From an uncultured bacterium (lineage in GTDB: Bacteria; Patescibacteriota; Saccharimonadia; UBA4664; SCTI01): DNA of 64,000 nt. The notes beneath the pieces were generated by a model, which was not told where the DNA came from, did no database searches, and saw nothing but the letters and a program-made list of their open reading frames with translations. The stretch is from the NCBI GenBank assembly GCA_963721685.1, contig CAVRJJ010000001.1, forward strand, positions 4,555 to 68,554. The letters run 5' to 3'. The position numbers and the translations under genes are program-made. This document shows positions 63 through 50,475 of the stretch, piece after piece. Within the stretch, counting starts at the first letter, position 1; every line of letters starts with the position of its first letter.

Positions 63-779
63 TTAAAACCCGTATCGGTTTTCTGAGAATTTATAAATAT
101 CCTGGACGATATTTTTTACTTCCCACTCTGCTATTTCGTCGGAAGTATTAGGTCTATATGTGCCAGGTGGTTTGTAATAAATATTTTCACACATTAGACC
201 GCCTATAATTACGATAGGATGGGTATAGATTATTTCCCTTATCGCGGCAGCGCCAAAGCGGTTAATATTAAACTGGCACATTCCTACTACCTGATGGTCA
301 CGAAACAGCTCTTCATTCAAACGACTTTCGTAGTCCAATAAGTGTTCTGTTTCAGTGTGGCTAGAGTTTAGCTGCCAAGTCATCTCAGCACATCCTCGAA
401 CAGCCCGAAAACCATTTGACGTAGCTTGGCGTGAAGCTTCTTGGAATAACTTGATTGCAGCATTCGGTTTGAAGGTGCCACTTTCTAAATAAGATCCGTC
501 CTTTGTGCCTAATACTAACTGCTCGCTTTGCAGGCTATATTCAATATCCACACCTGAGCGTTCTAAAGCCTGTAGGACATCCTCCGGTGGATTGTCATCG
601 GTAATATAGATACATTGATCGTGGTCTCGCAACCCCGCCTCTATGAAAGCAACTGCACTAGCCAAACCTTCATGGCTGTCACGGTAAAGCAAGCAGACAT
701 GGTCATGCACACCTACATCCTTTATTGTCTGAAGGAAGCGCTGATTTGGTCTAGGAATTTTTTTTAGCATGTCTTGCAT
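63..779 (-). CDS. MEDS-domain (DcmR-like sensory domain) protein, putative regulator
   Basis: 238-aa ORF, no TM; N-terminus 'HDHVCLLYRDSHEGLASAVAFIEAGLRDHDQCIYI' resembles the opening motif of MEDS domains. Confidence 0.45.
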   Translation of the reverse strand: MQDMLKKIPRPNQRFLQTIKDVGVHDHVCLLYRDSHEGLASAVAFIEAGLRDHDQCIYITDDNPPEDVLQALERSGVDIEYSLQSEQLVLGTKDGSYLESGTFKPNAAIKLFQEASRQATSNGFRAVRGCAEMTWQLNSSHTETEHLLDYESRLNEELFRDHQVVGMCQFNINRFGAAAIREIIYTHPIVIIGGLMCENIYYKPPGTYRPNTSDEIAEWEVKNIVQDIYKFSENRYGF

Positions 780-10962: not shown

Positions 10963-11322
10963 TTAGTCGCGCATCAGCCAGGCAAGTGCTTCTTCGCGGT
11001 TATCAAAGAGCTTAGTGTTGTCACCCTTTCCCATAGCCATGATGATGGCGTTGGTGACCGCGGCATGACCCACATGATGCATGGCGATTCGGTCGTAATC
11101 GGTTTCTTCAAGGAATTTGAGCGCGGCCTTATCGGAGCCCAGCGAATAGCCAGTTTGTTGGGTCATATCAAAAAGTCCCCGCAGCGGTTTATCCTGGTTT
11201 TTCATCGTAGCAATTAACGGCTGCACCTTATCGTATACGTCTTTAAAGGTCTCACCGGTTTGGTGGCCAATAAATATAACTTCAATGTATCCAGCGGGAT
11301 TAAGAAAAATTTTATTCTGCAT
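10963..11322 (-). CDS. STAS/SpoIIAA-like (DUF3478-like) protein, paralog A
   Basis: 119 aa; shares 'IEVIFIGHQTGETF / DRIAM / EALAWL' with the ORF at 18137-18547. Confidence 0.35.
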   Translation of the reverse strand: MQNKIFLNPAGYIEVIFIGHQTGETFKDVYDKVQPLIATMKNQDKPLRGLFDMTQQTGYSLGSDKAALKFLEETDYDRIAMHHVGHAAVTNAIIMAMGKGDNTKLFDNREEALAWLMRD

Positions 11323-11366: not shown

Positions 11367-12638
11367 CTACTCAAAATAGCGGATTGTTCCAAAGGGGATC
11401 TTGTCTTTCATCGGGTTTTTAGAAAGGGCTACCGAGGCTGGCTGGACTACCAATTCGCCATAGCGGTCGTTAATGGCATTAATGGCATCTTCCAAATGTT
11501 CGCGCTGGACCTGGGTATCGCCGAAGAGGGTAGGTTGGTGGTTGCCGCGGTAAGGCTCCAGACCGTAGCTGCTCATATCAAAGCCATTAACCACCAGCCC
11601 CTGCGGGCCGGAGAGAAACAGCTCCATAGCGCGCTGATGGAGCTGGTCACCCCGGCGGACGGCGGCGGGCCACATATTGCGTCCATGCCACCGCCGCGGA
11701 TGGTCGTAGTCGGCTTCGCTGCCGCGGGGCTGACCATAGCGGAGATAGAGGCTTAAGCCCCGGGCGGCCAAATTATTGCGTTTTAAGCGGCGGCTGATTT
11801 TTACCGCCGCCTTGTGAAAGAGTAGCGAGAGCTCTTCTACCTCATCGGTGCGGTGCTCCAAAACGTAGTTGCGCCCCACGCTGCGGATACCGTATTGACG
11901 CTCGGTTTCATACCCACGCAGCTTTAAGTACCAGTGATGGCCGTTGATGCCGCCAAACACCTGGCGAAACAGTACCCAGTAGGGTGCGCGGTAGAAATCC
12001 ACCGAGCTATAAATACCCGCTTGGTTTAGCCGCCGCTCCATCCGCCGTTTAATATAGGGCAGTTTAACCAGCGGCAGCATGCTAAATAAGGCTTCTTGCT
12101 CGCCGGGGTTGATGGTGAGCAAGCCGTCGGGCTTATGGAACTCGGCGGCTACCTTGGCTAGCCAGCGGTTTTGGGCAATGCCAATATTCACCGTCATGTA
12201 ATCGCCGACATCTTCCTTAATCCGCTGCTTAATCTCCCGAGCAATATCTTCCAGACTGCGTCCTTTTAAAATAGAGTCCATGCCCGCAAAATCAATAACG
12301 CCCTCATCGACACTTTTCATGTAGGCGGCGGGGGAGTAGCTGGCAAAAATAGCCTTCATTTTATGGTGCACGTGGGTGTACTTGTCGGGGTCGCTTTCCA
12401 GCATAGTGAAATCAGGAACAATCGCGCGAGCCTCGTGCCAGCGGGTGCCAATCCCAATGCCCGCTACTTTGGCTTCATGCGAGGCGGTGATGCAAATAGC
12501 GTAATCGTTTAAACGGTTAGTAACGCCTACCGGCCGGCCGCGTAACAAGGGATTGGCCTGCTGCTCAGTCATCGCAAAAGCGCTGTTGAGGTCGATGTGC
12601 ATAATTTTGGGGGCGACGGGGTTGGGTTCAATGGTCAT
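11367..12638 (-). CDS. dinB: Y-family DNA polymerase (DinB/Pol IV-like)
   Basis: 'MHIDLNSAFA' (=HVDMDCFFA), 'SVDEGVIDF' (=SLDEAYLDV catalytic DE), 'WLAKVAAEFHKPDGLLTI' (=FLAKIASDMNKPNGQFVI) align with E. coli DinB. Confidence 0.65.
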   Translation of the reverse strand: MTIEPNPVAPKIMHIDLNSAFAMTEQQANPLLRGRPVGVTNRLNDYAICITASHEAKVAGIGIGTRWHEARAIVPDFTMLESDPDKYTHVHHKMKAIFASYSPAAYMKSVDEGVIDFAGMDSILKGRSLEDIAREIKQRIKEDVGDYMTVNIGIAQNRWLAKVAAEFHKPDGLLTINPGEQEALFSMLPLVKLPYIKRRMERRLNQAGIYSSVDFYRAPYWVLFRQVFGGINGHHWYLKLRGYETERQYGIRSVGRNYVLEHRTDEVEELSLLFHKAAVKISRRLKRNNLAARGLSLYLRYGQPRGSEADYDHPRRWHGRNMWPAAVRRGDQLHQRAMELFLSGPQGLVVNGFDMSSYGLEPYRGNHQPTLFGDTQVQREHLEDAINAINDRYGELVVQPASVALSKNPMKDKIPFGTIRYFE

Positions 12639-12888
12639 AATAGACCTCGGCTAGGTTCCAAGTAAGCGTTTCAGTGTCAAGCTCAAGCTTAAACTTGGCC
12701 GTGTCGCACAATAATTCAAATATATGATAAAACTTCTTGCCGCGGCGGGCGGGATAATGGATGCCAAACTGAGTGACCTTATAGCGGTGCCCGCGCCAAT
12801 CTACCAGATACGGTAGCACCACGCTAGCCCGCTTGGTATGGTCAAACCCGGCTAGCACCCTAACTGGCTCATTAATCTCTTCGGTCAT
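12628..12888 (-). CDS. small hypothetical protein co-operonic with the Y-family polymerase
   Basis: about 87 aa from the Met that has a GGAG RBS 6 nt upstream; stop overlaps the dinB start by 11 nt; the ORF track's longer 134-aa form lacks an RBS. Confidence 0.4.
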   Translation of the reverse strand: MTEEINEPVRVLAGFDHTKRASVVLPYLVDWRGHRYKVTQFGIHYPARRGKKFYHIFELLCDTAKFKLELDTETLTWNLAEVYYDH

Positions 12889-12915
12889 GGCATCTCCTAG
12901 CTTCAATACTATACC

Positions 12916-12930
12916 GAACAAAGACCGAAC
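12916..12930 (-). promoter_or_regulatory. GTTC-N7-GTTC direct repeat (candidate SOS/LexA-type operator) in the dinB-operon promoter
   Basis: reads GAACaaagaccGAAC on + strand, i.e. GTTC-N7-GTTC on the coding strand, about 28 nt upstream of the 12888 start and just upstream of a TATAGT -10. Confidence 0.35.
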
Positions 12931-12962
12931 ACAAGCTATGAAGAGTACGCTATACTTATCGC

Positions 12963-13589
12963 ATGGAACTGCTTGACCTGATTTTGCATATTGACGAACA
13001 TCTGCGTAACGCTGTCGAGCAATATGGCACATTAAGTTACTTGGTGTTATTTGGGGTTATTTTTATTGAAACCGGGTTAGTAATTATGCCGTTCCTCCCC
13101 GGAGATTCGCTGCTATTCGCGGCGGGCGCTTTAGCCGGAGCCGGTTCACTGAGCATATGGGTTCTTTTGCCAGTGTTGTTAACAGCGGCGATTGTAGGCG
13201 ACACGGTTAATTATTGGATTGGCAGTAAGACCGGTGAAGTGGTTTTTACCCGGAAGAATTCACGTATTTTTAGGCCGGCTTATTTAAAGAAAACTCACGA
13301 CTTTTATGAAAAATATGGCGGGAAAACCATTATTATTGCCCGCTTTGTCCCGATTGTGCGGACATTCGCGCCGTTTGTGGCTGGGGTCGGCAGTATGCGC
13401 TATCGGGACTTTCTGGTTTATAATGTAATAGGAGCTTTCCTATGGGTTATTAGCTTAACACTGGCTGGCTTCTTTTTTGGGAAAATTCCTTTCATTCAGC
13501 GTAATTTTGAGCTGGTCGTATTGCTCATTATTGCGATTTCAATCTTACCGGGTGTGATTGAGTATATAAAGCATAAACGGACTAAATAA
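12963..13589 (+). CDS. DedA/SNARE-associated (VTT domain) membrane protein
   Basis: 'FLPGDSLLFAAGALAG...IIARFVPIVRTFAPFVAGV' DedA signature. Confidence 0.75.
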   Translation: MELLDLILHIDEHLRNAVEQYGTLSYLVLFGVIFIETGLVIMPFLPGDSLLFAAGALAGAGSLSIWVLLPVLLTAAIVGDTVNYWIGSKTGEVVFTRKNSRIFRPAYLKKTHDFYEKYGGKTIIIARFVPIVRTFAPFVAGVGSMRYRDFLVYNVIGAFLWVISLTLAGFFFGKIPFIQRNFELVVLLIIAISILPGVIEYIKHKRTK

Positions 13590-13595
13590 CTATAC

Positions 13596-16382
13596 ATGCA
13601 AGATATCCCGAAAATTCAAAAGTACATACGAGCGGCTAATTATTTATCGGTGGCCCAAATTTACTTGCAGGACAACTGCTTACTTGAGCGCCCTCTGCGT
13701 TCCGGCGATATTAAGCCTAAACTGTTTGGCCATTGGGGCACTTGTCCCGGCATTAACTTCTCTTACGCCCACGCTAATTATTTAATGAAAAAGCATGGGC
13801 AAGAAGCGGTCTATGTGCTAGGCCCCGGACATGGGATGCCGGCCCTACAGGCAAACCTATTCATAGAAGGGACATTGCAGAAATATTATTCCGAAGCCAC
13901 CCATGATAAAGCTGGCGTAACCTACATTAGTAAAATGTTTAGTTGGCCTTATGGCTTCTCCAGTCATTGCAGCCCCGAAACACCAGGATTGATTTTGGAG
14001 GGGGGTGAACTGGGCTACTCCTTGGCGTCGGCTTACGGCGCGGTGCTGGATAACCCCGGCCTGTTAGCGGTTTGCCTCATAGGTGACGGTGAGGCAGAAA
14101 CCGGTGCTATTGCCGCCGCCTGGCACACCAATAAGCTGATTGACCCCGCTACTAACGGCGCTGTTTTGCCAATTATGCACTTAAATGGACTTAAGATTTC
14201 CGGTCCGACTATTTTTGGCCGGATGAATGACAAAGATTTGCTTGATCTATTTAACGGTTACGGCTACGAGCCCTTTATTGTGGAAGGTAATGACGACGAG
14301 ATTGATGCCCGTATGATGGAAACCCTGGAAACCTGCTACGAGCGGATTACCGCTATCCAAAAGCAAGCCCGCGAAGGAGATAATGAATTTACACCCCGTT
14401 TCCCCATGATTATCCTTAAAAGTCCGAAAGGGTGGACTACCGTAAAAGAGTTGCGGGGACAGCCGATTGAAGGCACCATTCGGGCCCATCAGGTAGTTAT
14501 GCCGACGGTGGCGGGGGATGAAGAAGAGCTGCAGGTGCTTGAAACCTGGCTTAAATCCTACCGGTTTGATGAACTATTTGATAAGACGACTGGATTTATA
14601 AGCGACATACTCGAAGTAGTGCCGCCCGACGAGCTGCGGATGGGTGATAGCCCCCATATGTTTGGGGCGCGCTACCAGCCGCTCAAGCTGCCAAGTGCCG
14701 AAGATTTAGCCAAACCGCTTAACACTCCCGGCGTTTTGCAGTCTAACGCTATGCGTATGGCAGGGAGTTATCTAAAACATTTATTTGCCGACAATCAAGA
14801 ATCACGTAACCTGCGGCTGATGTCTCCTGATGAAACATACTCTAACCGGCTGGATGAGGTGTTCGAAGTTACATCGCGCGGCTTCGTTTGGCCTCATCAG
14901 CCAGGTGATAAAGATTTGGCACGGGATGGCCGGGTGATGGAAATGCTTTCGGAACACACCATGCATGGCTTGGCCCAAGGGTACGTCTTAACTGGGCGTC
15001 ACGCCGTTTTCACCACTTATGAAGCGTTTGCCCAAATCTTTTCCAGCATGGCCCACATGTACCAAAAATTCTTGAAATATGTACGGTTGATGCCGTGGCG
15101 CCAGGACATTCCCTCGATAAACTACCTTTTGACCTCCACGGCTTGGCGGCAAGAGCATAACGGCTACTCCCATCAAAACCCCAGCTTTGTTTCGGGAATG
15201 CTGGAAAAGCATAATGACTTCATAAAAGCTTATTTTCCGGTTGACGACAACAGCATGCTGGCGGTGATGGAAGAGGCCATGGGTTCAAAAAACCAAATGA
15301 ACATTATTACCGCGGGAAAAACGCCCGAGCCTCGGTGGCTAAGTTATGAGCAAGCCAAAAACGCGCTGGTAGATGGGTTAAGTGTCTGGGAGTTTGCCAG
15401 CGATAAAAACCCTCATATCGTAATGGTAGGAATTGGCGATTACGTTACTAAGGAGGTCCTGGCGGCTATCGAGCTCATTAAGCAGGACGCGCCGGAAATT
15501 CGCATCCGCTGCGTTAATATGGTGCGGTTGCAGGCTGCCTGTTCGTGCGATGACGCGTTCCATCCCCAAATACCTTCAGCCGAAAAATATTTTACGGTAG
15601 ATAAGCCCGTGATTGTAAACTTTCACGGCTATCCGGAAACGCTTAAAAGTATGCTTTTTAATGTAAAAAACCCCCAGCGTTTTTCCGTGCATGGTTATAT
15701 TGAGGAGGGCGGGACGACCACGGCGTTTGATATGCAGGTGAGAAATCGCACCAGCCGCTACCATTTAGCGCTTGAGGCAATTGAAACAGCGTTGAAAGAA
15801 GAGATTATCAATGAAGGCAAATATCAGCAGTTGACTGAAAAATATCAGAAAGCCCTAGATGACCACCACGCTTACATTACTACCATAGGCGCTGATCCGA
15901 TTGATCTTGAAAACTGGCAGTGGTCCGGCAAGCCGCCCTTGATTGTAAATACTTCCGCCCAAGAACGGGTGAAAACCCTCAAGGAAGCCCGCACCATTGC
16001 CTTTATTGGCTTATCGGATGACACCAGCCGTCATAGCCATAAAGTTGCCCGGTACTTTCAGGAAAAAGGATATCGGATTATTCCTATCAATCCCAATATT
16101 GATGAGGCATTAGGCGAGAAGGCCTATAAGAGCCTAATGGACGTGCCGGCTACCCTGCATATTGATATCGTTGATATTTTCCGTAAGCCAACTGAAGTAA
16201 TCCCCCATATGGAAGAAATTATGGAGCGGGGAGGTATTAGAACGGTCTGGCTGGCCGAAGGCGCCAACAGCCATGAGGCGGAAGTCTTTGCCGAGGATTA
16301 TGGTCTATATTTGGTGACCAACTACTGCATTATGGATGTTGATATAAGCGGCGAAAATGCTCCGGAGAAAGCTCACGTATGA
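13596..16382 (+). CDS. xfp: xylulose-5-P/fructose-6-P phosphoketolase with a C-terminal CoA-binding (YccU-like) domain
   Basis: 928 aa; N-terminal 'FGHWGTCPG...GPGHG' TPP-enzyme motifs of Xfp; the last ~140 aa 'IAFIGLSDDTSRHSHKVARYFQEKGYRIIPINP...' match YccU/CoA_binding_2. Confidence 0.8.
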   Translation: MQDIPKIQKYIRAANYLSVAQIYLQDNCLLERPLRSGDIKPKLFGHWGTCPGINFSYAHANYLMKKHGQEAVYVLGPGHGMPALQANLFIEGTLQKYYSEATHDKAGVTYISKMFSWPYGFSSHCSPETPGLILEGGELGYSLASAYGAVLDNPGLLAVCLIGDGEAETGAIAAAWHTNKLIDPATNGAVLPIMHLNGLKISGPTIFGRMNDKDLLDLFNGYGYEPFIVEGNDDEIDARMMETLETCYERITAIQKQAREGDNEFTPRFPMIILKSPKGWTTVKELRGQPIEGTIRAHQVVMPTVAGDEEELQVLETWLKSYRFDELFDKTTGFISDILEVVPPDELRMGDSPHMFGARYQPLKLPSAEDLAKPLNTPGVLQSNAMRMAGSYLKHLFADNQESRNLRLMSPDETYSNRLDEVFEVTSRGFVWPHQPGDKDLARDGRVMEMLSEHTMHGLAQGYVLTGRHAVFTTYEAFAQIFSSMAHMYQKFLKYVRLMPWRQDIPSINYLLTSTAWRQEHNGYSHQNPSFVSGMLEKHNDFIKAYFPVDDNSMLAVMEEAMGSKNQMNIITAGKTPEPRWLSYEQAKNALVDGLSVWEFASDKNPHIVMVGIGDYVTKEVLAAIELIKQDAPEIRIRCVNMVRLQAACSCDDAFHPQIPSAEKYFTVDKPVIVNFHGYPETLKSMLFNVKNPQRFSVHGYIEEGGTTTAFDMQVRNRTSRYHLALEAIETALKEEIINEGKYQQLTEKYQKALDDHHAYITTIGADPIDLENWQWSGKPPLIVNTSAQERVKTLKEARTIAFIGLSDDTSRHSHKVARYFQEKGYRIIPINPNIDEALGEKAYKSLMDVPATLHIDIVDIFRKPTEVIPHMEEIMERGGIRTVWLAEGANSHEAEVFAEDYGLYLVTNYCIMDVDISGENAPEKAHV

Positions 16383-18130
16383 ACAATCAAGTGAAAGTCA
16401 TTGCTAAAGATTTAGTCGTTAACCAAACCTCCAACTTAAAAAACTACGACCAGGAATACCAAAATTTTTCCTGGGATACGGCGGCGGCAGAAGAGGTTAG
16501 TTTGTTCCCCGATGGGACCCTCAATATTGCCTATAATTGCGTTGACCGCCACGCCGAAGGAAAGCGCAAAGATAAGGTGGCGTTACGCTACGAAGGCGCT
16601 AATGGTGAAAAAGAAGACTACAGTTTTCTGCAATTAAAAGAATTAAGCAATAAGTTTGCCAATGTCCTAACTTCCCAGGGGGTTGGCAAGGGTGAACGGG
16701 TATTTATTTTCCTGCCGCCAGGGCCGGAGCGCTATGTTGCCTTTTTAGGCACCTTAAAGCTGGGAGCGGTGGTAGGGACAATGTTTGCCGCGTTTCAAGA
16801 AATGGCGTTATTAGATCGCTTGGGTGATAGTGGGGCTAAGGTTGTGGTGACCGACGCGGACCTCTACCCGCGTATTAAGAATATTCAAGATAAGCTTCCA
16901 CATTTAAAGCATATTATTATCGTCGGGCGCGGATCGGATGAAAAATTTCAGGCCGAGAATATCATTTCTTATGAGTCCGAAATGGAGAAGGCAGACAGCG
17001 GCTTTGATGTAGCCCATATGCAGAAAGATGATTTTGCCTACATGCTCTATACCTCTGGTACGACCGGCAAGCCTAAAGGCGTGGTACATGCCCATTTTGA
17101 TATTCTTCAAGCCATCGTTACTACCAAGTATGTGCTCGATATCCAAGAGGATGATATCTATTGGTGCACGGCAGACCTAGGCTGGGTAACCGGTGTTGTA
17201 TATGGCGTTATCGGTATTTGGGGCTTAGGCGGAACCTCGGTTGTTTACGGTGGCCGCTTTAGTCCGGAAAACTGGTATAACGTTTTACAATCGCATAAGG
17301 TGAGTGTTTGGTATTCCGCGCCAACGGCTATCCGTATGCTGATGGGGTCGCCGGTTGACCCGAAAAACTACGAGCTGGGGTCGCTTCGACATTTATGTAG
17401 TGTCGGCGAACCCCTTAATCCGGAAGCAATTTGGTGGGGGCTAACGGCGTTTGGTTTGCCCTTCCACGACACTTGGTGGCAAACCGAAACCGGCGGCATT
17501 AGTATTACCAATTACGCCGCGCTTGATATTAGGCCGGGCTCAATGGGCAAGCCCTTGCCCGGCATAGAGGCGGCGATTATTGATGACGACGGAAATCCGG
17601 TGCCCGACGGGGAAGAGGGTAATTTGGCACTTAAAGCCTCAACCGTCTCTTCGCTGATGAAGACGATATGGCACAACCAAGAGAAATTCGATTCATACTT
17701 TAAGAATGAGTGGTACCTGTCCGGTGATGCCGCGATGAAGGATAAGGACGGTTATTTCTGGTTTTTTGGCCGGGTAGATGACGTCATTATGACTGCCGGT
17801 GAACGAATTGGACCATTTGAGGTGGAAAGCGCGCTTGTTAGCTACCCAGACGTTATTGAGGCGGGCGTTATTGGCAAGCCCGACGAGGTGCGCGGTGAAA
17901 TTATCAAAGCGTTTGTGGTGGTTAAGCCTGGCGTTGAGCAAAGCGATGAGTTGAAGGAGAAATTGCGGCTCCATGTGAAAAAGCATTTGGCCGGCCACGC
18001 TTATCCGCGCGAAATTAGTTTTATTGATAAGCTGCCTAAAACCCGCTCCGGAAAAATTATGCGCCGGGTATTAAAAGCCCAGGAGCTGGGTTTGCCAATC
18101 GGCGACACCTCAACCCTCGAGAACTTTTAG
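16379..18130 (+). CDS. acs: AMP-forming acetyl-/acyl-CoA synthetase
   Basis: 'YTSGTTGKPKGV' AMP-binding motif, 'YNCVDRHAEG' Acs-like N-region; start overlaps the xfp stop (ATGA). Confidence 0.75.
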   Translation: MNNQVKVIAKDLVVNQTSNLKNYDQEYQNFSWDTAAAEEVSLFPDGTLNIAYNCVDRHAEGKRKDKVALRYEGANGEKEDYSFLQLKELSNKFANVLTSQGVGKGERVFIFLPPGPERYVAFLGTLKLGAVVGTMFAAFQEMALLDRLGDSGAKVVVTDADLYPRIKNIQDKLPHLKHIIIVGRGSDEKFQAENIISYESEMEKADSGFDVAHMQKDDFAYMLYTSGTTGKPKGVVHAHFDILQAIVTTKYVLDIQEDDIYWCTADLGWVTGVVYGVIGIWGLGGTSVVYGGRFSPENWYNVLQSHKVSVWYSAPTAIRMLMGSPVDPKNYELGSLRHLCSVGEPLNPEAIWWGLTAFGLPFHDTWWQTETGGISITNYAALDIRPGSMGKPLPGIEAAIIDDDGNPVPDGEEGNLALKASTVSSLMKTIWHNQEKFDSYFKNEWYLSGDAAMKDKDGYFWFFGRVDDVIMTAGERIGPFEVESALVSYPDVIEAGVIGKPDEVRGEIIKAFVVVKPGVEQSDELKEKLRLHVKKHLAGHAYPREISFIDKLPKTRSGKIMRRVLKAQELGLPIGDTSTLENF

Positions 18131-18136
18131 CGAGCG

Positions 18137-18547
18137 TTAGGCGCTTTTGCGCAGCCATATTTTGGCATCTTTGAGGTTCGAGAAGTAGTGCGTATTAGGT
18201 TGGGCAATAGTCTTAAGCAAAAGATTAATCCCGGTTCGAAGCGCCGCCGACCCATCACCAACCATAGCAGCCCGGTCATAGTCGAGAATACGCCCTAAAA
18301 TAGCAACCGCCCGCACTGCCGGCATATCGGCTTTTCCAATTTTGCTGACATCATCAAGCAGTAATACTTTTTTCCCAGCTTGGCGCAGTTTAACAATTTC
18401 GTCGGTCAGCTCGCGGCCCATGGCTTCAACCGTAGCGCCGGTTTGGTCGCCAACGACATTAATTCGCAAGATACCGTCTTTAAAATAGATCTGATTTTCT
18501 GAATTAACGGTATCTGGCATATCTCTCAAGGATAAGGGATTGCGCAA
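18137..18547 (-). CDS. STAS/SpoIIAA-like protein, paralog B
   Basis: 136 aa; 'LRINVVGDQTGATV / DRAAM / AKIWL' paralogous to the ORF at 10963-11322. Confidence 0.35.
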   Translation of the reverse strand: MRNPLSLRDMPDTVNSENQIYFKDGILRINVVGDQTGATVEAMGRELTDEIVKLRQAGKKVLLLDDVSKIGKADMPAVRAVAILGRILDYDRAAMVGDGSAALRTGINLLLKTIAQPNTHYFSNLKDAKIWLRKSA

Positions 18548-18684
18548 GGGCAGTAAAGCTATTTGGGTAGAAGGGATTCTTGTTGATTGAGGGCTGATCG
18601 GCTTGCGGTAGGAAAAAATGCTTGACGATAATTTCCATTGCGGTTATGCTTAGGCTAATTAACACAAAACACAAGGAGCTGACA

Positions 18685-45954: not shown

Positions 45955-46482
45955 ATGGCAGAATTAGGTGTCGGCAGCGACGCTCCCAATGTAGTTAATT
46001 TGGTCATTGAAATCCGTCGCGGCGAGGGTAAAAACAAGTATGAGCTGAATAAAGACACCGGCTATATGACGCTCGATCGGGTAAACGCTACCATGCTGAA
46101 GTATCCCTGCGACTACGGCTATGTGCCGGGCACCCTGTGCGATGACGGCGATCCACTGGATGGGCTGCTGGTTATCGATGAGTCGGTTCCGGCTAACGTG
46201 GTCGTTCCCGTCCGAGCGATTGGTGTCCTTTATATGGTTGATGATGGCGAAGGAGACGAAAAACTGGTTTGCGTAGCGGATGATGATGTTACCATGAAGC
46301 ACATCAATGAGATCGAAGACCTTGGCACCCATTTTAAGCCGATGGTGGAGCACTTCTACAGCCACTACAAAGATTGGAAAAACGATTGGAAGGGCGTTGA
46401 TGTGCACTTTAACGGCTGGGGCAATGCCGAAGCTGCGCGTAAGGTTATATCAGAAGCAATGGGTCGGTATTCTAGCAAGTAG
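45955..46482 (+). CDS. ppa: inorganic pyrophosphatase (family I)
   Basis: 'YPCDYGYVPGTLCDDGDPLDGLLV' signature. Confidence 0.9.
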   Translation: MAELGVGSDAPNVVNLVIEIRRGEGKNKYELNKDTGYMTLDRVNATMLKYPCDYGYVPGTLCDDGDPLDGLLVIDESVPANVVVPVRAIGVLYMVDDGEGDEKLVCVADDDVTMKHINEIEDLGTHFKPMVEHFYSHYKDWKNDWKGVDVHFNGWGNAEAARKVISEAMGRYSSK

Positions 46483-46528: not shown

Positions 46529-47536
46529 ATGGCAATTAAGGTAGCAATCAATGGATTTGGACGTATTGGAAGGAACGCTTTTAAACTGGCTTGGAACCAT
46601 CAAGAGCTGGAGATTGTAGCAGTAAATGACATTACCGACACTAAGACGCTAGCGCATTTATTAAAACACGATTCAAATTATGGGTTATATCATGAAGAAG
46701 TTAGTTTCGACGACCAGAACATCATCGTTGGCGGCCGAAAGGTAAGGGTATTTGCTGAAAAAGACCCCGCCCTGCTTCCCTGGAAAGATCTTGACGTTGA
46801 CGTGGTGATTGAAAGCACCGGTTTTTTTGTTAAGCGCGAGGACGCGAGCAAGCACTTAACAGCTGGCGCCAAACGGGTGGTGTTGTCGGCCCCGGCGAAA
46901 GGCGACGACGTCCCAACCTACGTAATTGGTGTAAATGATGGAGACATTACCGCCGCCGATACGGTTATTTCCAACGCTTCCTGTACCACCAACTGCATTA
47001 CGCCGGTCATGGCGGTGCTGGAAAAAGCGGTGGGGGTTGAAAAGGCTTTAATGACAACCGTGCACTCTTACACGGCAAGTCAGCGTTTGCAGGACGCGCC
47101 GGCTAAAGACCTGCGGGAGGCTCGCAACGCGGCCGAAAACATCGTGCCCACCACCACTGGTGCATCCAAGGCCGCTGGACGCGCTTTGCCTGCCCTTCAG
47201 GGTATCTTCGACGGTTTAAGCATCCGAGTCCCCACACCGGTGGTGAGCTTAAGCGATATTACCTTTGTCAGTAAGAAGGACACCACAATTGAAGAGATCA
47301 ACCAAGCCCTAGTGGCAGCCAGCCATGAACCTCATTTGGAAGGCGTTTTAGCGGCAACCGAAGATCCGCTGGTTTCACGCGATTACGTGGGTAACAGCCA
47401 TTCAGCCATTGTGGATCTAAAGTTAACCAATGTTGTCGCCGGCAACCTCGTGAAAGTGGTGGCTTGGTATGACAACGAATGGGGTTATTCCAACCGACTG
47501 GTAGAAATGGTCATTAAGGCGGGCAAAACGCTATGA
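46529..47536 (+). CDS. gap: glyceraldehyde-3-phosphate dehydrogenase
   Basis: 'INGFGRIGRNAFK' and active site 'SNASCTTNCITP'. Confidence 0.9.
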   Translation: MAIKVAINGFGRIGRNAFKLAWNHQELEIVAVNDITDTKTLAHLLKHDSNYGLYHEEVSFDDQNIIVGGRKVRVFAEKDPALLPWKDLDVDVVIESTGFFVKREDASKHLTAGAKRVVLSAPAKGDDVPTYVIGVNDGDITAADTVISNASCTTNCITPVMAVLEKAVGVEKALMTTVHSYTASQRLQDAPAKDLREARNAAENIVPTTTGASKAAGRALPALQGIFDGLSIRVPTPVVSLSDITFVSKKDTTIEEINQALVAASHEPHLEGVLAATEDPLVSRDYVGNSHSAIVDLKLTNVVAGNLVKVVAWYDNEWGYSNRLVEMVIKAGKTL

Positions 47537-47982
47537 AGCCACGGGTTTTTATTGGCGCTGACCATGGGGGCTTTGAATATAAGAACCAAATTCGCGAGCA
47601 CTTGATTCACCAGGGATACGAGGTAGAAGATGTCGGCGCTCTAACGCTTGACCCGCAAGATGATTACCCTCAGTACGCCTACGCGGTTGCCACCAAAATT
47701 CTAGGTGAAGAGGTCCCAGCTTTTGGTATTTTAATATGTCGCGGTGGACAAGGCATGGCGATGGCCGCCAATCGGGTTTCCGGCATTCGCGCAGCGGTAG
47801 CGTGGTCGCCTGAGGTGGCCCAAAAAACCCGCGAGGATAACAATGCCAATGTGGTGAGTTTGCCCGGGGACATGATTGATATTGATACCTCGCTTGAGAT
47901 TGTGGATACGTTTCTGGCTGAGCCGTTTTCCGGTGAAGATCGTCACGCACGGCGGGTCAAGCAGATTGAGGACTTGTTTTAA
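47533..47982 (+). CDS. rpiB: ribose-5-phosphate isomerase B
   Basis: 'VFIGADHGGFEYKNQIREHL' RpiB/LacAB family. Confidence 0.85.
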   Translation: MKPRVFIGADHGGFEYKNQIREHLIHQGYEVEDVGALTLDPQDDYPQYAYAVATKILGEEVPAFGILICRGGQGMAMAANRVSGIRAAVAWSPEVAQKTREDNNANVVSLPGDMIDIDTSLEIVDTFLAEPFSGEDRHARRVKQIEDLF

Positions 47983-47985
47983 GGA

Positions 47986-48624
47986 ATGGCAACGATTGTG
48001 CCAACGGTGCTTGCTTCCGATCCCGCAGAATACGCCACTATGCTTTCTCGGGCTGAAAGTTTAAGTAAACGGGTACATGTTGATGTTTGCGATGGGGTGT
48101 TTGCTTCAGGTAAAACTATTGGTTTAGCCCAAGTGCATGTGGCAGACGATACCCACCTAGACTTACATTTAATGTTAAAAGATTCTGGCACGGAAATGGA
48201 AACAGCCTTAAGCCTCCATCCCCATTTAATTATTATCCACGCGGAATCCGAGGGCGACCTCCTAGGGCTGATTACACGGATTGCTAGCTTAGGTATTAAG
48301 ACGGGAATTGCTGTGTTGCCATCAACCCCATTGGACGCTGTTCGTCCATTAATTGAGAAGGTTGACCATGTGCTTATCTTTACGGGAACGCTCGGTCAAA
48401 ATGGGGGGCAATTCCAGGCAGATCAGCTTGAGCGGGCGGCGGCAATTCGGCAGATTAAGTCCAAAATTGAAATAAGCGTTGACGGAGGGGTATCCGACGC
48501 CAACGCCGCGGCGATTGTTGGCGCTGGGGTCGACGTGCTGTACGCGGGCGGATTTCTACAAAATGCCGAGAACCCAGCGGCCGCTTATGGATCAATTAAC
48601 AAAACAATTGAGGTTTACTCATGA
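47986..48624 (+). CDS. rpe: ribulose-phosphate 3-epimerase
   Basis: 212-aa TIM barrel with 'HVDVCDG' and 'DLHLM' motifs. Confidence 0.75.
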   Translation: MATIVPTVLASDPAEYATMLSRAESLSKRVHVDVCDGVFASGKTIGLAQVHVADDTHLDLHLMLKDSGTEMETALSLHPHLIIIHAESEGDLLGLITRIASLGIKTGIAVLPSTPLDAVRPLIEKVDHVLIFTGTLGQNGGQFQADQLERAAAIRQIKSKIEISVDGGVSDANAAAIVGAGVDVLYAGGFLQNAENPAAAYGSINKTIEVYS

Positions 48625-49502
48625 AAAGCGTAGCTGAAATAGAATCAATCGCTAACCGTATCCGTCTGGATATTATTGAGATGCTGGTTGAGGCTGGCAG
48701 TGGCCATTCCGGAGGTCCTTTGGGTATGGCAGACGTGTTTGCCACACTGTACTTTAGGGTTCTCAACCATGACCCTAAAAACCCCGATTGGCCGGAGCGG
48801 GACCGAGTGGTGCTTTCAAACGGCCACATTGTGCCCGTACGTTACGCCACAATGGCACGTGCCGGGTACTTCCCGGTAGAAGAGTTGATGACGCTACGTA
48901 AGTTCGGGTCGCGGCTGCAAGGCCATCCGGAGCGGGTGAAACTGCCCGGCCTGGAAACCACCAGCGGGCCGCTCGGTTGCGGCTTAAGCGCGGCGTCCGG
49001 GATGGCATTAGTTTTAAAAATGGAGCAAAAAAAGTCGCAACGGATTTATTGCCTTGTAAGTGATGGTGAGTTTGACGAGGGCAATATTTGGGAAGCGGTC
49101 TTGTTCGCCGGCAATTATCATTTAAACCAGATAACTATGATCATGGACCGCAACAACATCCAGATTGATGGTTCCACCGAGGAGGTTATGCCTCTTGGTG
49201 ACGTCGCGGAAAAGATGCGCACCTTCGGCTGGCATACCATCGATGTTGATGGCCATAATATCCAAAGCCTGATTGATGCGTGCGAAAAGGCTAAGACGGT
49301 TGAGGATAAGCCAACGGCGATTATAGCCCACACGGTCCCCGGGAAAGGCGTTGATTATATGGAGTACGACTATCATTGGCACGGTAACCCGCCGGGAACG
49401 TTGGATGTACCCGGATCGCCGCCTAAAGCCAAGCAAGTTGAGGCTGCACTGGAACAGCTTCGTGCACTTGAGAAGCGGATTAAGGAGAACGAGGATGATT
49501 AA
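48621..49502 (+). CDS. tktN: transketolase, N-terminal (TPP-binding) subunit
   Basis: 'GSGHSGGPLGMADV' and 'GDGEFDEGNIWEA' TPP motifs; 293 aa, split form. Confidence 0.85.
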   Translation: MKSVAEIESIANRIRLDIIEMLVEAGSGHSGGPLGMADVFATLYFRVLNHDPKNPDWPERDRVVLSNGHIVPVRYATMARAGYFPVEELMTLRKFGSRLQGHPERVKLPGLETTSGPLGCGLSAASGMALVLKMEQKKSQRIYCLVSDGEFDEGNIWEAVLFAGNYHLNQITMIMDRNNIQIDGSTEEVMPLGDVAEKMRTFGWHTIDVDGHNIQSLIDACEKAKTVEDKPTAIIAHTVPGKGVDYMEYDYHWHGNPPGTLDVPGSPPKAKQVEAALEQLRALEKRIKENEDD

Positions 49503-50475
49503 TCCGGCAATGAAACTGGCCAGCGACGCTCTTGATCCTGAGGTGGCCCAAGAACCAATCCGCAGCGGTTTTGGCCGCGGTCTTTTAGCAGCCGGGGAGC
49601 GCAATCCGGATGTCGTGGCGTTGTGCGCCGACTTAACCGATTCCACTAAGATGACAGCTTTTGCTAAAGCTTTTCCGGAGCGGTTCGTTGAGGTTGGGGT
49701 GGCCGAACAAAACCTAGTGACGGTCGCGTCTGGCATGGCAATGATGGGAAAGATTCCTTTTACCTCAAGTTATGCTGCCTTCTCACCAGGGCGCAACTGG
49801 GAACAAATTAGAACTACCATTTGCCTGAACGAAGCCAATGTTAAAATTGTTGGTTCCCACGCTGGGATTTCGGTGGGTCCTGATGGTGCAACTCATCAAA
49901 TGCTGGAAGACATCGCGTTGATGCGGGTCTTGCCGCATATGGTTGTTGTGGTTCCCTGTGATGCCAAGGAAGCCGAAAAGGCGACCCTGGCAATCGCGGA
50001 TCATCACGGGGGAGCGTATTTACGTTTGGCTCGCGAAAAATCCCCGGTTATTACCACTGATGAGACGCCATTTGAGATGGGGAAAATTCAAGTTTTCCGG
50101 GAAGGCAGCGATGTAACCATAGTGGCATGCGGGATTATGGTCCACGAGGCCCTTCTGGCGGCCGAGGAGCTTGCTAGGCAGGGCATAGAGGCGGAAGTCA
50201 TTAACTGTCCCAGTATCAAGCCTCTTGATAGTGAAGGGCTGCTAACCTCAATCAAAAAAACCGGCAAAGTGGTGACCTGCGAAGAGGGTCAGGTTGCTGG
50301 TGGGCTAGGAGGTGCCGTCGCGGAACTAACGGGCGAGCACCATCCCGTGCCAATGCGTCGGGTCGGAATGCATGACCGCTTTGGCGAGTCCGGCAAACCC
50401 TCTGAGCTATTAGAGCACTTTGGGCTTACTTCCCCCAATATTGTGAAAGCCGTACAGGAGCTGCTTAACAAGTAG
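49495..50475 (+). CDS. tktC: transketolase, C-terminal subunit
   Basis: start ATG overlaps the tktN stop and has a GGAG RBS; 'EVGVAEQNLV' pyrimidine-binding domain; the track's 49351 start is an upstream read-through. Confidence 0.85.
   Translation: MINPAMKLASDALDPEVAQEPIRSGFGRGLLAAGERNPDVVALCADLTDSTKMTAFAKAFPERFVEVGVAEQNLVTVASGMAMMGKIPFTSSYAAFSPGRNWEQIRTTICLNEANVKIVGSHAGISVGPDGATHQMLEDIALMRVLPHMVVVVPCDAKEAEKATLAIADHHGGAYLRLAREKSPVITTDETPFEMGKIQVFREGSDVTIVACGIMVHEALLAAEELARQGIEAEVINCPSIKPLDSEGLLTSIKKTGKVVTCEEGQVAGGLGGAVAELTGEHHPVPMRRVGMHDRFGESGKPSELLEHFGLTSPNIVKAVQELLNK

Follow-up and report, generated by a model that had tools for sequence, protein, structure and literature searches.

Phosphoketolases of the Xfp/Xpk type initiate the Xfp-Pta and Xfp-AckA routes (bifid shunt, heterolactic fermentation), in which a sugar phosphate is converted to acetyl-phosphate and the acetyl unit is handed onward by Pta or AckA. 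The solved canonical enzymes (Bifidobacterium 3AI7/3AHC, Lactococcus 6GUA, cyanobacterial 8IO8 and 'Candidatus Saccharibacterium' 9CD3) have a three-domain ThDP body in common. Proteins of the YccU family (PF13380) such as Thermus thermophilus TT1466 (1IUK), Pyrococcus horikoshii PH1109 (2D59/2D5A), 2DUW and 1Y81 are free, single-domain CoA-binding proteins of about 140 aa, and a homologous Rossmann CoA-binding domain is found at the N-terminus of NDP-forming acyl-CoA synthetases and the succinyl-CoA synthetase (SCS) alpha subunit and in Pat/PatZ. In Saccharimonadia and Paceibacteria pta has not been seen and the link between acetyl-phosphate and acetyl-CoA has been termed unclear (PMC9166423); for earlier Saccharibacteria genomes acetyl-CoA metabolism 'appears to be lacking', with xfp and ackA as neighbours in T. 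rhizospherense (PMC6031116). Acetate and ATP formation is assigned to 'acetyl-CoA synthetase' in some CPR genome papers (PMC7143001), and acetate kinase is rare among Patescibacteria single-cell genomes (PMC12361377).

The cassette analysed here lies in the window, a 64-kb stretch of a 405-kb contig from an ultra-small bacterium of the Saccharimonadia (Patescibacteria/CPR). It shares the first step with the described routes and must likewise hand the acetyl unit onward, but the partner is an AMP-forming Acs together with a CoA-binding module instead of Pta or AckA. Its features are:

13596..16382, + strand: fused gene xfp-CoA, phosphoketolase with a C-terminal CoA-binding module, 928 aa (ORF, Pfam, NCBIfam)
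13602..15923, + strand: phosphoketolase body (Pfam: XFP_N aa 3-358, XFP aa 389-563, XFP_C aa 575-776)
15924..15989, + strand: variable linker between enzyme and module, aa 777-798 (identity profile, pLDDT)
15990..16334, + strand: CoA_binding_2 (YccU/TT1466-type) Rossmann module, aa 799-913 (Pfam, PDB matches)
16379..16382, + strand: ATGA, the acs start overlapping the xfp-CoA stop (sequence)
16379..18130, + strand: acs, a short Bacillus-AcsA-type AMP-forming acetate--CoA ligase, 583 aa (NCBIfam, PDB, Pfam)

The 928-aa and 583-aa ORFs are present exactly as the sequence-only reading had claimed, and the base composition near the locus is nothing unusual. The fused protein matches the NCBIfam phosphoketolase subfamily NF003616 with 907.5 bits (cutoff 777), XFP_N covers residues 3-358 (E 4e-138), and the AF2 model superimposes on solved Xfp structures with TM scores of 0.87-0.92, the canonical enzymes showing 34-46% sequence identity to the query in structural alignment. 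The ThDP motif GDGEAETG at residues 163-170 is common to both, as are the catalytic His, Glu, Tyr, Asn and Lys: in alignments to the Bifidobacterium enzyme (8io6/3ai7), the conserved H46, H79, H124 and H298 correspond to H64, H97, H142 and H320, and E453, Y475, N522, H526 and K575 to E479, Y501, N549, H553 and K605, which we take to be catalytic residues of the Bifidobacterium phosphoketolase. As the alignment shows catalytic and phosphate-site residues to be the same as in unfused enzymes, the phosphoketolase portion (residues 1-778) is complete, with an active site predicted to be intact. The solved canonical enzymes end at query residues 776-778, and since all ten matched solved phosphoketolase sequences (796-845 aa) stop aligning by residue 778, residues ~779-928 are extra. 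The domain boundary is thus confirmed and the proposed C-terminal extension exists, although it comprises about 150 residues and not the ~140 first estimated; in this comparison only the query continues into a CoA-binding domain.

That this extension is a YccU/CoA_binding_2-type Rossmann domain, as had been proposed, is borne out by Pfam (PF13380 at residues 799-913, E 2.8e-31, 108.8 bits against a cutoff of 22.8) and by matches to the stand-alone CoA-binding proteins TT1466 (1iuk, E 1.5e-21), PH1109 (2d59), 2duw and 1y81 (E 1e-21 to 1e-14 overall). About 120-130 residues align with these proteins, and the motifs G-x-S..R..S, NP, D-I/V-F-R and W..G of the solved CoA-binding proteins, together with a Cys, are kept in the module, which, unlike those free proteins, is covalently part of an enzyme and tied to Acs by gene linkage. 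Residues A802, G805, S814, G825, P830, P833, R863, W885, G889 and C911 (codon 16326-16328) are invariant in fused and free modules. Among 63 fused homologs mean pairwise identity is 0.73 for the module, 0.73 for the enzyme and 0.31 for the linker, and the AF2 model gives pLDDT values of ~90 for the module and 58-77 for the linker; judged by sequence, the module is as constrained as the phosphoketolase enzyme and the linker is free. More distant similarity extends to TIGR02717 (~90 residues, E 5e-7, 28.8 bits against a cutoff of 567) and 4xyl (E 4e-5), but the catalytic phosphohistidine/Ligase_CoA, ATP-grasp and GNAT domains of acyl-CoA synthetases, SCS and Pat/PatZ are absent from the query protein. 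By hhalign C911 aligns with SucD Cys123 (GPNCPG), in a match that is not significant (E 0.1), and is possibly equivalent to the SCS-alpha Cys next to the CoA thiol.

A search for such fusions in other genomes recovered the same four-domain architecture in all 120 listed relatives (69-100% identity, 916-949 aa), which derive from independent NCBI, ENA, JGI and Logan assemblies and, among the matches listed, carry names of Saccharimonadia, Levyibacteriota and Parcubacteria. The probability that a sequencing or assembly frameshift has fused two separate ORFs is practically nil: one continuous ORF of 916-949 aa in each of the 120 relatives rules out such an origin, and the linker is in frame and holds no internal start. 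The fusion is limited to one Xfp clade, no Xfp of ~920 aa occurs among the 50%-identity cluster representatives, and no paper describing an Xfp-CoA-binding fusion was found in the literature. The clade of the solved Saccharibacteria enzyme 9CD3 is unfused (786-787 aa); in P0384, a representative of this clade, the gene has grpE and dnaK on either side and no acs within 10 kb.

The product of the downstream gene scores 824.3 bits against the NCBIfam acetate--CoA ligase equivalog NF003313 (cutoff 729), has the 572-aa AcsA 9g79 as its best solved relative (E 1.5e-206) and possesses AMP-binding and AMP-binding_C domains (Pfam) and the catalytic Lys motif SGKIMRR. The sequence-only reading was thus right in calling it a translationally coupled AMP-forming acetyl-CoA synthetase whose ATG overlaps the xfp stop, four bases being shared; a GGAG stands 11 nt 5' of this ATG. 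Its statement that no pta or ackA is visible nearby holds across the whole window: Pfam scans covering every ORF >=150 aa, plus those of 55-149 aa that do not overlap, gave no match to Acetate_kinase, PTA_PTB or Acylphosphatase; nor was a PTA_PTB or Acetate_kinase domain found in the fetched flanks of the fused loci. The joint handling of the acetyl unit by Xfp, module and Acs which it had suggested is strongly supported by conserved linkage, as acs adjoins the fused gene or lies within 1.3 kb in seven of seven independent fused loci with otherwise unrelated flanks. The acs gene immediately follows the fused gene in the window as well as in L001, L007, L009, L012, L013 and L014, and lies at a distance of 1.2 kb in L011; the 4-nt overlap recurs in L007, L009 and L013 and, as inferred from the tblastn start, in L001, with a 1-nt overlap in L012 and a 0-nt gap in L014. 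In addition, at least 36 of the 120 fused-Xfp clusters have a contig size identical to that of one of the 120 closest Acs homologs. In L009 the gene after acs encodes GlmM (score above cutoff), as it does in L007 with a score slightly under the cutoff; in L018 acs is followed by GlmM-type fragments, and MurB and DapD are encoded nearby in L013 and L014.

Locus L018 (CP064992.1, a 1.23-Mb genome) has the order kbl, free module, acs, with no Xfp within 6 kb of the module. This free module is 52% identical to the fused module and lies 10 bp upstream of acs, and an NJ tree places it and P0123 as sister to the fused ones (bootstrap 81% and 59%); its Acs is the same orthologue (69% identical; NF003313 815 bits against 729). 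The protein encoded just upstream of the module, Kbl (glycine C-acetyltransferase, 559 bits against a cutoff of 460), is another enzyme that uses CoA and forms acetyl-CoA. The pairing of a free module with Acs comes from this one informative locus, the other close free modules being on contigs too short to be informative. None of 80 ordinary YccU-like loci has an Acs-like or Xfp-like neighbour. Taken together with the unfused Xfp that lacks an adjacent acs, these observations point to Acs as the conserved partner of the module; as the 120 closest Acs homologs all lack a module fused onto Acs itself, a partnership with Acs would mean that Xfp alone has acquired the fusion.

With a little under even confidence, we read the locus as a two-gene, three-module cassette that would supply acetyl-CoA from sugar phosphates, with the CoA-binding accessory serving the Acs step. 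The Xfp body would cleave xylulose-5-phosphate or fructose-6-phosphate to acetyl-phosphate, as inferred from its intact catalytic, ThDP and phosphate-site residues, and its substrates would come from the GAPDH-RpiB-Rpe-transketolase cluster, 30 kb further downstream. Hypothetically, acetyl-phosphate would then become acetate through an unlinked acetate kinase, an acylphosphatase or hydrolysis, and the coupled AMP-forming Acs, which matches the curated equivalog, would convert acetate, ATP and CoA to acetyl-CoA, for use for example in GlcN-1-P acetylation, glmM following acs in related loci. On its flexible tether the module may bind free CoA or acetyl-CoA and so serve the CoA-dependent step, either holding and presenting scarce CoA or reporting CoA status, and fusion to Xfp would hold it at a fixed ratio and position with respect to the enzyme producing the acetyl unit. 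Since the module stays with Acs when free and the Xfp residues are unchanged, it looks more like an accessory of CoA-dependent acetyl-CoA formation than like something that alters the chemistry of the phosphoketolase, and the fusion probably arose by xfp joining an older pair of free module and acs. A module that bound CoA tightly could also draw it away from Acs instead of helping, and a CoA presenter or sensor for Acs is without experimental precedent, as no biochemical function of any single-domain YccU-type protein was found described in the literature.

The module might instead, as the sequence-only reading had offered with CoA sensing of phosphoketolase activity, be an allosteric sensor which binds CoA or acetyl-CoA and regulates the phosphoketolase, by feed-forward from free CoA or feedback from acetyl-CoA, with Acs merely the next pathway enzyme. 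A C-terminal ligand-binding domain on a flexible linker is a common regulatory design, the N-terminal region of the Pat acetyltransferase, with CoA_binding_2, binds acetyl-CoA cooperatively, nucleotide regulation of phosphoketolases is possible given the cyanobacterial Xfp solved with AMPPNP (8io8), and the fusion is strictly kept in the 120 listed relatives. This is nevertheless somewhat unlikely, because the closest free module adjoins Acs with no Xfp in view (L018), so that its role does not require Xfp, a linker identity of 0.31 is lower than usual where an allosteric interface is tightly coupled, and the catalytic residues of the Xfp body show no change compared with unfused enzymes. The unchanged phosphate site, by which acetyl-phosphate is still the expected product, also speaks against a module substituting for Pta, close to the acetyl-phosphate/acetyl-CoA interconversion that the sequence-only reading had offered as well, in which module-held CoA would take the acetyl group from acetyl-phosphate, possibly through the invariant Cys911, or from acetyl-ThDP and release acetyl-CoA. 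SCS and ACD interconvert acyl-phosphate plus CoA with acyl-CoA plus Pi, and domain 1 of SCS-alpha and of the NDP-forming acyl-CoA synthetases is a homologue of the module; Pta, moreover, is reported to be absent from Saccharimonadia and Paceibacteria (PMC9166423), none is encoded in the window, and the free module of L018 follows another enzyme transferring acetyl to CoA. Such catalysis is unlikely all the same, as the phosphohistidine and the other domains completing the SCS/ACD active site are absent, the alignment of C911 with SucD lacks significance, there would be no need for a strictly coupled Acs that consumes ATP were acetyl-CoA already made by the fusion, and in L018 the module accompanies Acs where no source of acetyl-phosphate is in view.

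A neutral event, in which adjacent xfp and free yccU-like genes were joined by loss of a stop codon and the module works as when free, without a mechanistic link to Xfp, would agree with the variable linker, the restriction to one Xfp clade and the sister-clade free module holding the same position upstream of acs. We consider it quite unlikely, since the fusion has persisted without fission in at least 120 clusters, whose identity falls as low as 69% and whose names span several CPR classes and phyla; this retention speaks for an advantage in stoichiometry or co-localisation at the least. On the role of the module, the neutral account and the cassette described above overlap. Acs could finally run backwards, as the energy-conserving Acs of Syntrophus aciditrophicus does, with sugar phosphate fermented to acetate, acetyl-CoA, AMP and PPi yielding acetate, ATP and CoA, and the module supplying the acetyl-CoA. 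The CPR papers cited for acetate and ATP formation (PMC7143001) and the rarity of acetate kinase (PMC12361377) favour this direction, but it is very improbable: a hypothetical Pta-like step would be needed first, the window encodes a soluble inorganic pyrophosphatase (45955-46482), which counteracts ATP synthesis driven by PPi, and the neighbouring genes (GlmM, MurB, DapD) are biosynthetic and not fermentative. The acetyl-CoA-supplying cassette would probably constitute a compact acetyl-CoA route in bacteria without the usual enzymes for making acetyl-CoA.

Two overlapping open reading frames head the argument, and the sequence-only reading, which had claimed both of them as well as the overlap of start and stop, was borne out by the ORF listing and by the sequence, where the acs ATG is shared with the xfp TGA as ATGA, with GGAG 11 nt upstream.

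13596..16382, forward strand: xfp-CoA, phosphoketolase with C-terminal CoA-binding module, 928 aa
16379..18130, forward strand: acs, acetyl-CoA synthetase, 583 aa

A scan for promoters and terminators gave no signal exceeding shuffled expectation. Within the product of the first ORF, Pfam recognizes XFP_N (residues 3-358; 460.6 bits versus a gathering cutoff of 23.7), XFP (389-563; 225.9 versus 22), XFP_C (575-776; 193.7 versus 23.4) and CoA_binding_2 (PF13380, 799-913; E 2.8e-31, 108.8 bits versus a gathering score of 22.8), and the protein passes the curated NCBIfam phosphoketolase model NF003616 (907.5 bits versus 777). The alignments of 10/10 matched solved phosphoketolases (796-845 aa) end by query residue 778, with residue 795 (of 799) of 9cd3, a solved unfused 'Candidatus Saccharibacterium' enzyme, aligned with query residue 776, and therefore approximately 150 residues of the xfp-CoA product are additional. 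The domain boundary drawn earlier consequently stands with respect to an extra C-terminal domain absent from all ten solved canonical Xfp, while its length is about 150 and not 140 residues. Among solved structures, the extension matches TT1466 (1iuk, E 1.5e-21), PH1109 (2d59, E 5.8e-20), 2DUW and 1Y81 (range E 1e-21 to 1e-14), which, along with PF13380, agrees with the CoA_binding_2/YccU-type domain previously claimed; domain 1 of NDP-forming acyl-CoA synthetases is matched weakly. CoA binding by this module is predicted from motif conservation.

All sequence tests place the xfp-CoA product in the phosphoketolase family, with which it has the three domains, the ThDP motif and the catalytic residues in common. 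Residues H46, H79, H124, H298, E453, Y475, N522, H526 and K575 align with Bifidobacterium longum H64, H97, H142, H320, E479, Y501, N549, H553 and K605, the catalytic residues of that enzyme, and the ThDP motif GDGEAETG (residues 163-170) aligns with that of the Bifidobacterium enzyme; most of these catalytic and ThDP residues are invariant in an alignment of 63 homologs. Acetyl-phosphate would be the expected product of X5P/F6P cleavage, because there is no sign of phosphate being replaced as acyl acceptor.

The four-domain architecture is found in 120/120 listed relatives (69-100% identity, 916-949 aa), at least 120 in all, from NCBI, ENA, JGI and Logan assemblies; the fusion, which was to be sought in other genomes, recurs there, and a frameshift or assembly artefact, raised earlier as ORFs joined by a sequencing frameshift, is ruled out by the unchanged architecture. 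Source names of the listed relatives include Saccharimonadia, Saccharimonadales, Levyibacteriota, Parcubacteria and 'Patescibacteria group'; a few short contigs with fused Xfp are binned as Dormibacteraeota or Limnocylindrales, which may reflect mis-binning or spread beyond CPR. Across 63 aligned fused proteins, the Xfp body and the module show equal mean pairwise identity (0.73 each), against 0.31 in the 22-residue linker; the module is therefore constrained like the enzyme and the linker free. The AlphaFold2 model is confident in both parts, with pLDDT ~90 in the module, 58-77 in the linker and a pTM of 0.81, and a fold search with the full-length model returned Xfp and transketolases only, 9cd3 among them. 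Gene order in the window is shared with locus L001, on a MAG contig of 'Candidatus Saccharimonadia' (Xfp 84%, Acs 83% identical), down to equal lengths of the ORFs downstream of acs, which marks the source of the window as a member of the Saccharimonadia. A contig search with the module alone gave, among the matches listed, this one close locus and distant free modules, and a module search of cluster representatives found no representative of ~920 aa, as the fused proteins sit within clusters whose representatives are ordinary Xfp. Many copies of the fused protein are in public databases, labelled simply 'phosphoketolase'; literature searches on this fusion, on phosphoketolase in CPR/Patescibacteria/Saccharibacteria and on the function of the YccU family yielded no account of the fusion.

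The next gene had been read as an AMP-forming acetyl-CoA synthetase, and its product indeed passes the acetate--CoA ligase equivalog NF003313 (824.3 bits versus 729), contains the Pfam domains AMP-binding and AMP-binding_C and carries the A10 catalytic lysine motif (...TRSGKIMRR...), the nearest structure being the 572-aa AcsA 9g79 (E 1.5e-206). Its linkage to fused xfp recurs in other loci.

Fused Xfp loci, position of acs, and genes following
L007: fused Xfp 80% identical, 1.05-Mb contig; acs with 4-nt overlap; then GlmM-like, 436.5 bits, just under the 447.55 cutoff
L009: fused Xfp 75% identical, 1.9-Mb contig; acs with 4-nt overlap; then GlmM, 468.6 bits, over the cutoff
L013: fused Xfp P0086; acs with 4-nt overlap; then MurB and DAP-pathway genes
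L012: Parcubacteria fused Xfp; acs with 1-nt overlap; no notable genes after
L014: Hainich groundwater Patescibacteria fused Xfp; acs with 0-nt gap; then ATP-citrate-lyase-like genes, MurB, DapD
L011: Levyibacteriota fused Xfp; acs 1.2 kb off, beyond two opposite-strand genes; no notable genes after

Beyond xfp-CoA/acs, the flanks of these six loci are dissimilar. As an independent, indirect measure, the longest contig has exactly the same size for 36/120 listed fused-Xfp clusters and a closest-120 Acs homolog, a lower bound since both lists hold the best 120. Two neighbour assignments were dropped on NCBIfam comparison: the 'hexapeptide acetyltransferase' of L013 is gamma-carbonic-anhydrase/PaaY-like, under all cutoffs, and the 'CoaD' of L011 and L014 is RfaE-domain-II-like. 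The ATP-citrate-lyase-like pair directly after xfp-CoA/acs in L014 (14555-17591), an ATP-grasp_2 plus Citrate_bind subunit and a Ligase_CoA plus Citrate_synt/citryl-CoA-lyase-like subunit, is an unexpected additional acetyl-CoA/citrate enzyme for a CPR genome. The L009 contig (ERZ25039522 contig_23123) is, at 1.9 Mb, large for Patescibacteria, and its xfp-CoA/acs/glmM cassette adjoins an archaeal-type PEP carboxylase (TIGR02751, 509 bits) and a thiamine pyrophosphokinase.

Which of the two enzymes is the partner of the module can be judged from loci where the three are not together. The 9CD3 enzyme (46% identical), a cryo-EM structure, comes from a large clade whose members are all unfused (786-787 aa), and a representative of this clade shows the order hrcA-grpE-xfp-dnaK-dnaJ with neither acs nor ackA within 10 kb; acs does not come along with Xfp alone, and the idea of an unfused Saccharibacteria Xfp paired with AckA was discarded for want of that ackA. 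The nearest free-standing modules, among the matches listed from a search of 1.84 billion cluster representatives, are 45-52% identical, and one of them, P0126, lies in the complete 1.23-Mb genome CP064992.1 (locus L018) 10 bp upstream of an acs whose product scores 815 bits on NF003313 and is 69% identical to the window Acs, to which the Acs of fused loci are 71-83% identical. Just upstream of this free module is Kbl (glycine C-acetyltransferase; 559 bits versus 460), GlmM-type fragments follow acs, and there is no Xfp within 6 kb of the module. Kbl itself yields acetyl-CoA from CoA. The full row (CP064992.1, 1023479-1035913; 3486-10268 therein) consists of a split Zn-ADH (ADH_N, ADH_zinc_N), possibly a threonine dehydrogenase, Kbl, the free CoA_binding_2 protein, Acs, a GlmM-like PGM_PMM in two pieces, possibly frameshifted, and a weak GNAT; it resembles a version of the Xfp cassette that would make acetyl-CoA from threonine. 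By comparison, Acs-like or Xfp-like neighbours occur at 0/80 listed ordinary YccU-like metagenome loci, 48/80 of which had 2 kb or more of flanking sequence on one side. In a neighbour-joining tree the fused modules group together (81% bootstrap) with free modules P0123 and P0126 as sister (59%), the module being a fused derivative of the YccU/TT1466 type. The contigs that carry free modules P0123, P0127 and P0129 are too short to show their gene context. The L018 pairing, the unfused-Xfp control, the 0/80 background and the tree together identify module and Acs as the conserved pair, Xfp or Kbl being, on the single informative free-module locus, the interchangeable upstream source of the acetyl unit. 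Among the best 120 Acs homologs no module is fused directly to Acs.

The PF13380 fold is common to the module and the YccU/TT1466 single-domain proteins, which are free and ~140 aa long, whereas here it forms aa 799-913 of 928. In NDP-forming acyl-CoA synthetases and SCS alpha, the CoA-binding domain is followed by a phosphohistidine (Succ_CoA_lig/Ligase_CoA) domain which the fused protein does not have, and the module matches TIGR02717 over just the initial ~90 positions of that model (28.8 bits versus a cutoff of 567). Pat/PatZ acetyltransferases join an ACD-like region to a C-terminal GNAT, whereas no Acetyltransf domain is present here, and the Pta domain PTA_PTB (PF01515) is absent from the fused protein, the 64-kb window and the fetched flanks. 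Because these defining domains are absent, the fused protein belongs neither to Pta nor to the ACD/SCS alpha subunits nor to the Pat acetyltransferases, and any function like that of Pta would be a matter of analogy and not of homology. None of the domains Acetate_kinase, PTA_PTB, Acylphosphatase and GNAT turned up in Pfam scans of the 64-kb window (ORFs of at least 150 aa and non-overlapping ORFs of 55-149 aa), in line with the earlier remark that no pta or ackA is nearby.

Domain identities, conservation and linkage come directly from the tools; flux direction, use of the product, to which the GlmM, MurB and DapD neighbours may point, and the role of the module are what we infer. Tentatively, and with a chance somewhat short of even, the cassette is read as an acetyl-CoA-supply unit, in which the tethered module would bind CoA or acetyl-CoA as an accessory to the CoA-dependent step. 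The Xfp body would convert sugar phosphate to acetyl-phosphate, which would next give acetate (neither acetate kinase nor acylphosphatase domains being seen in the window), Acs would turn acetate into acetyl-CoA, and the module would hold or present the scarce cofactor or report its status. That CoA or acetyl-CoA on the module instead controls Xfp allosterically is unlikely, weakened as it is by the pairing of the module with Acs independently of Xfp and by the variable linker.

Still less probable is a Pta-like transfer, in which acetyl from acetyl-phosphate or acetyl-ThDP would pass to module-bound CoA. It would suit the reported absence of pta from Saccharimonadia (PMC9166423), the homology of the SCS/ACD CoA domain to the module and Cys911, invariant family-wide and falling on Cys123 of Escherichia coli SucD in a non-significant hhalign alignment, but the remaining SCS/ACD catalytic domains are absent, the phosphate site of Xfp is unaltered and a strictly coupled Acs would be redundant. 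Its strongest form, a self-contained acetyl-CoA-forming phosphoketolase that dispenses with Pta, where CoA on the tethered module, with Cys911 beside the thiol, would take acetyl from nascent acetyl-phosphate or acetyl-ThDP, is more doubtful again, and an essentially neutral fusion of neighbours ranks below even that. Acs running in reverse to yield ATP is highly improbable, given the soluble pyrophosphatase encoded in the window and the biosynthetic neighbouring genes.

With respect to substrate, a GAPDH - RpiB (47533-47982) - Rpe - split transketolase cluster identified by Pfam at 46529-50475 is predicted to be able to supply X5P and F6P. Two genes encode the transketolase, one for the N-terminal half (48621-49502) and one for the C-terminal half; the ORF listed for the latter begins at TTG 49351, inside the first gene, so that its true start probably lies later, near the end of that gene. 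An upstream DedA/VTT gene ends 6 nt before xfp and, like the convergent SpoIIAA-like gene downstream, is not kept in the other loci. SpoIIAA-like/STAS-type small proteins (PF11964) flank the region at 10963-11322 and 18137-18547, both on the reverse strand, with no partner kinase or phosphatase seen. The products of six same-strand ORFs at 18622-25093 carry a hydrophobic segment at the N terminus and match nothing in Pfam. The first two of them (398 and 366 aa) are clearly paralogous (...VPG..VSA.VD.TL.F.V.G.PVST.YKG.LSTADRC...), and the gene lengths of the run are repeated in L001; the run is probably a cluster for surface proteins or a pilus-like structure that is specific to the lineage. 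Within 11367-13032, the reverse strand encodes a 423-aa DNA polymerase of the Y family (ImpB/MucB/SamB); at its start this gene overlaps with the end of a 134-aa ORF upstream (12628-13032), possibly a small accessory gene. The protein encoded at the window edge (63-779, reverse strand) has a MEDS domain (methanogen/methylotroph DcmR sensory domain, E 1e-41), which is uncommon for a CPR genome of reduced size.

Much of bacterial diversity belongs to the Patescibacteria/CPR, which need acetyl-CoA at least for cell-wall N-acetylation, and PDH and PFOR are missing from many of them. Earlier Saccharibacteria genomes were described without acetyl-CoA metabolism (PMC6031116), pta was not found in Saccharimonadia and Paceibacteria (PMC9166423), and papers on CPR metabolism describe acetyl-CoA metabolism, or the link from acetyl-phosphate to acetyl-CoA, as absent or not clear in these lineages (PMC6031116; PMC9166423). 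A self-contained acetyl-CoA-forming phosphoketolase, if true, would fill this acknowledged gap of Saccharimonadia and Paceibacteria, and a module that promoted transfer from acetyl-phosphate to CoA would be of interest to metabolic engineers who pair phosphoketolase with Pta in non-oxidative, carbon-conserving glycolysis. The YccU family, with structures solved and no function assigned, gains in Acs its first firm genetic partner. As judged from sequence, the architecture of xfp-CoA/acs is clean, conserved and well suited to experiment; its mechanism is a proposal, and it bears on a recognised CPR metabolic gap. The conserved Xfp/CoA-module/Acs cassette would offer Patescibacteria/CPR a concrete, testable route to acetyl-CoA.
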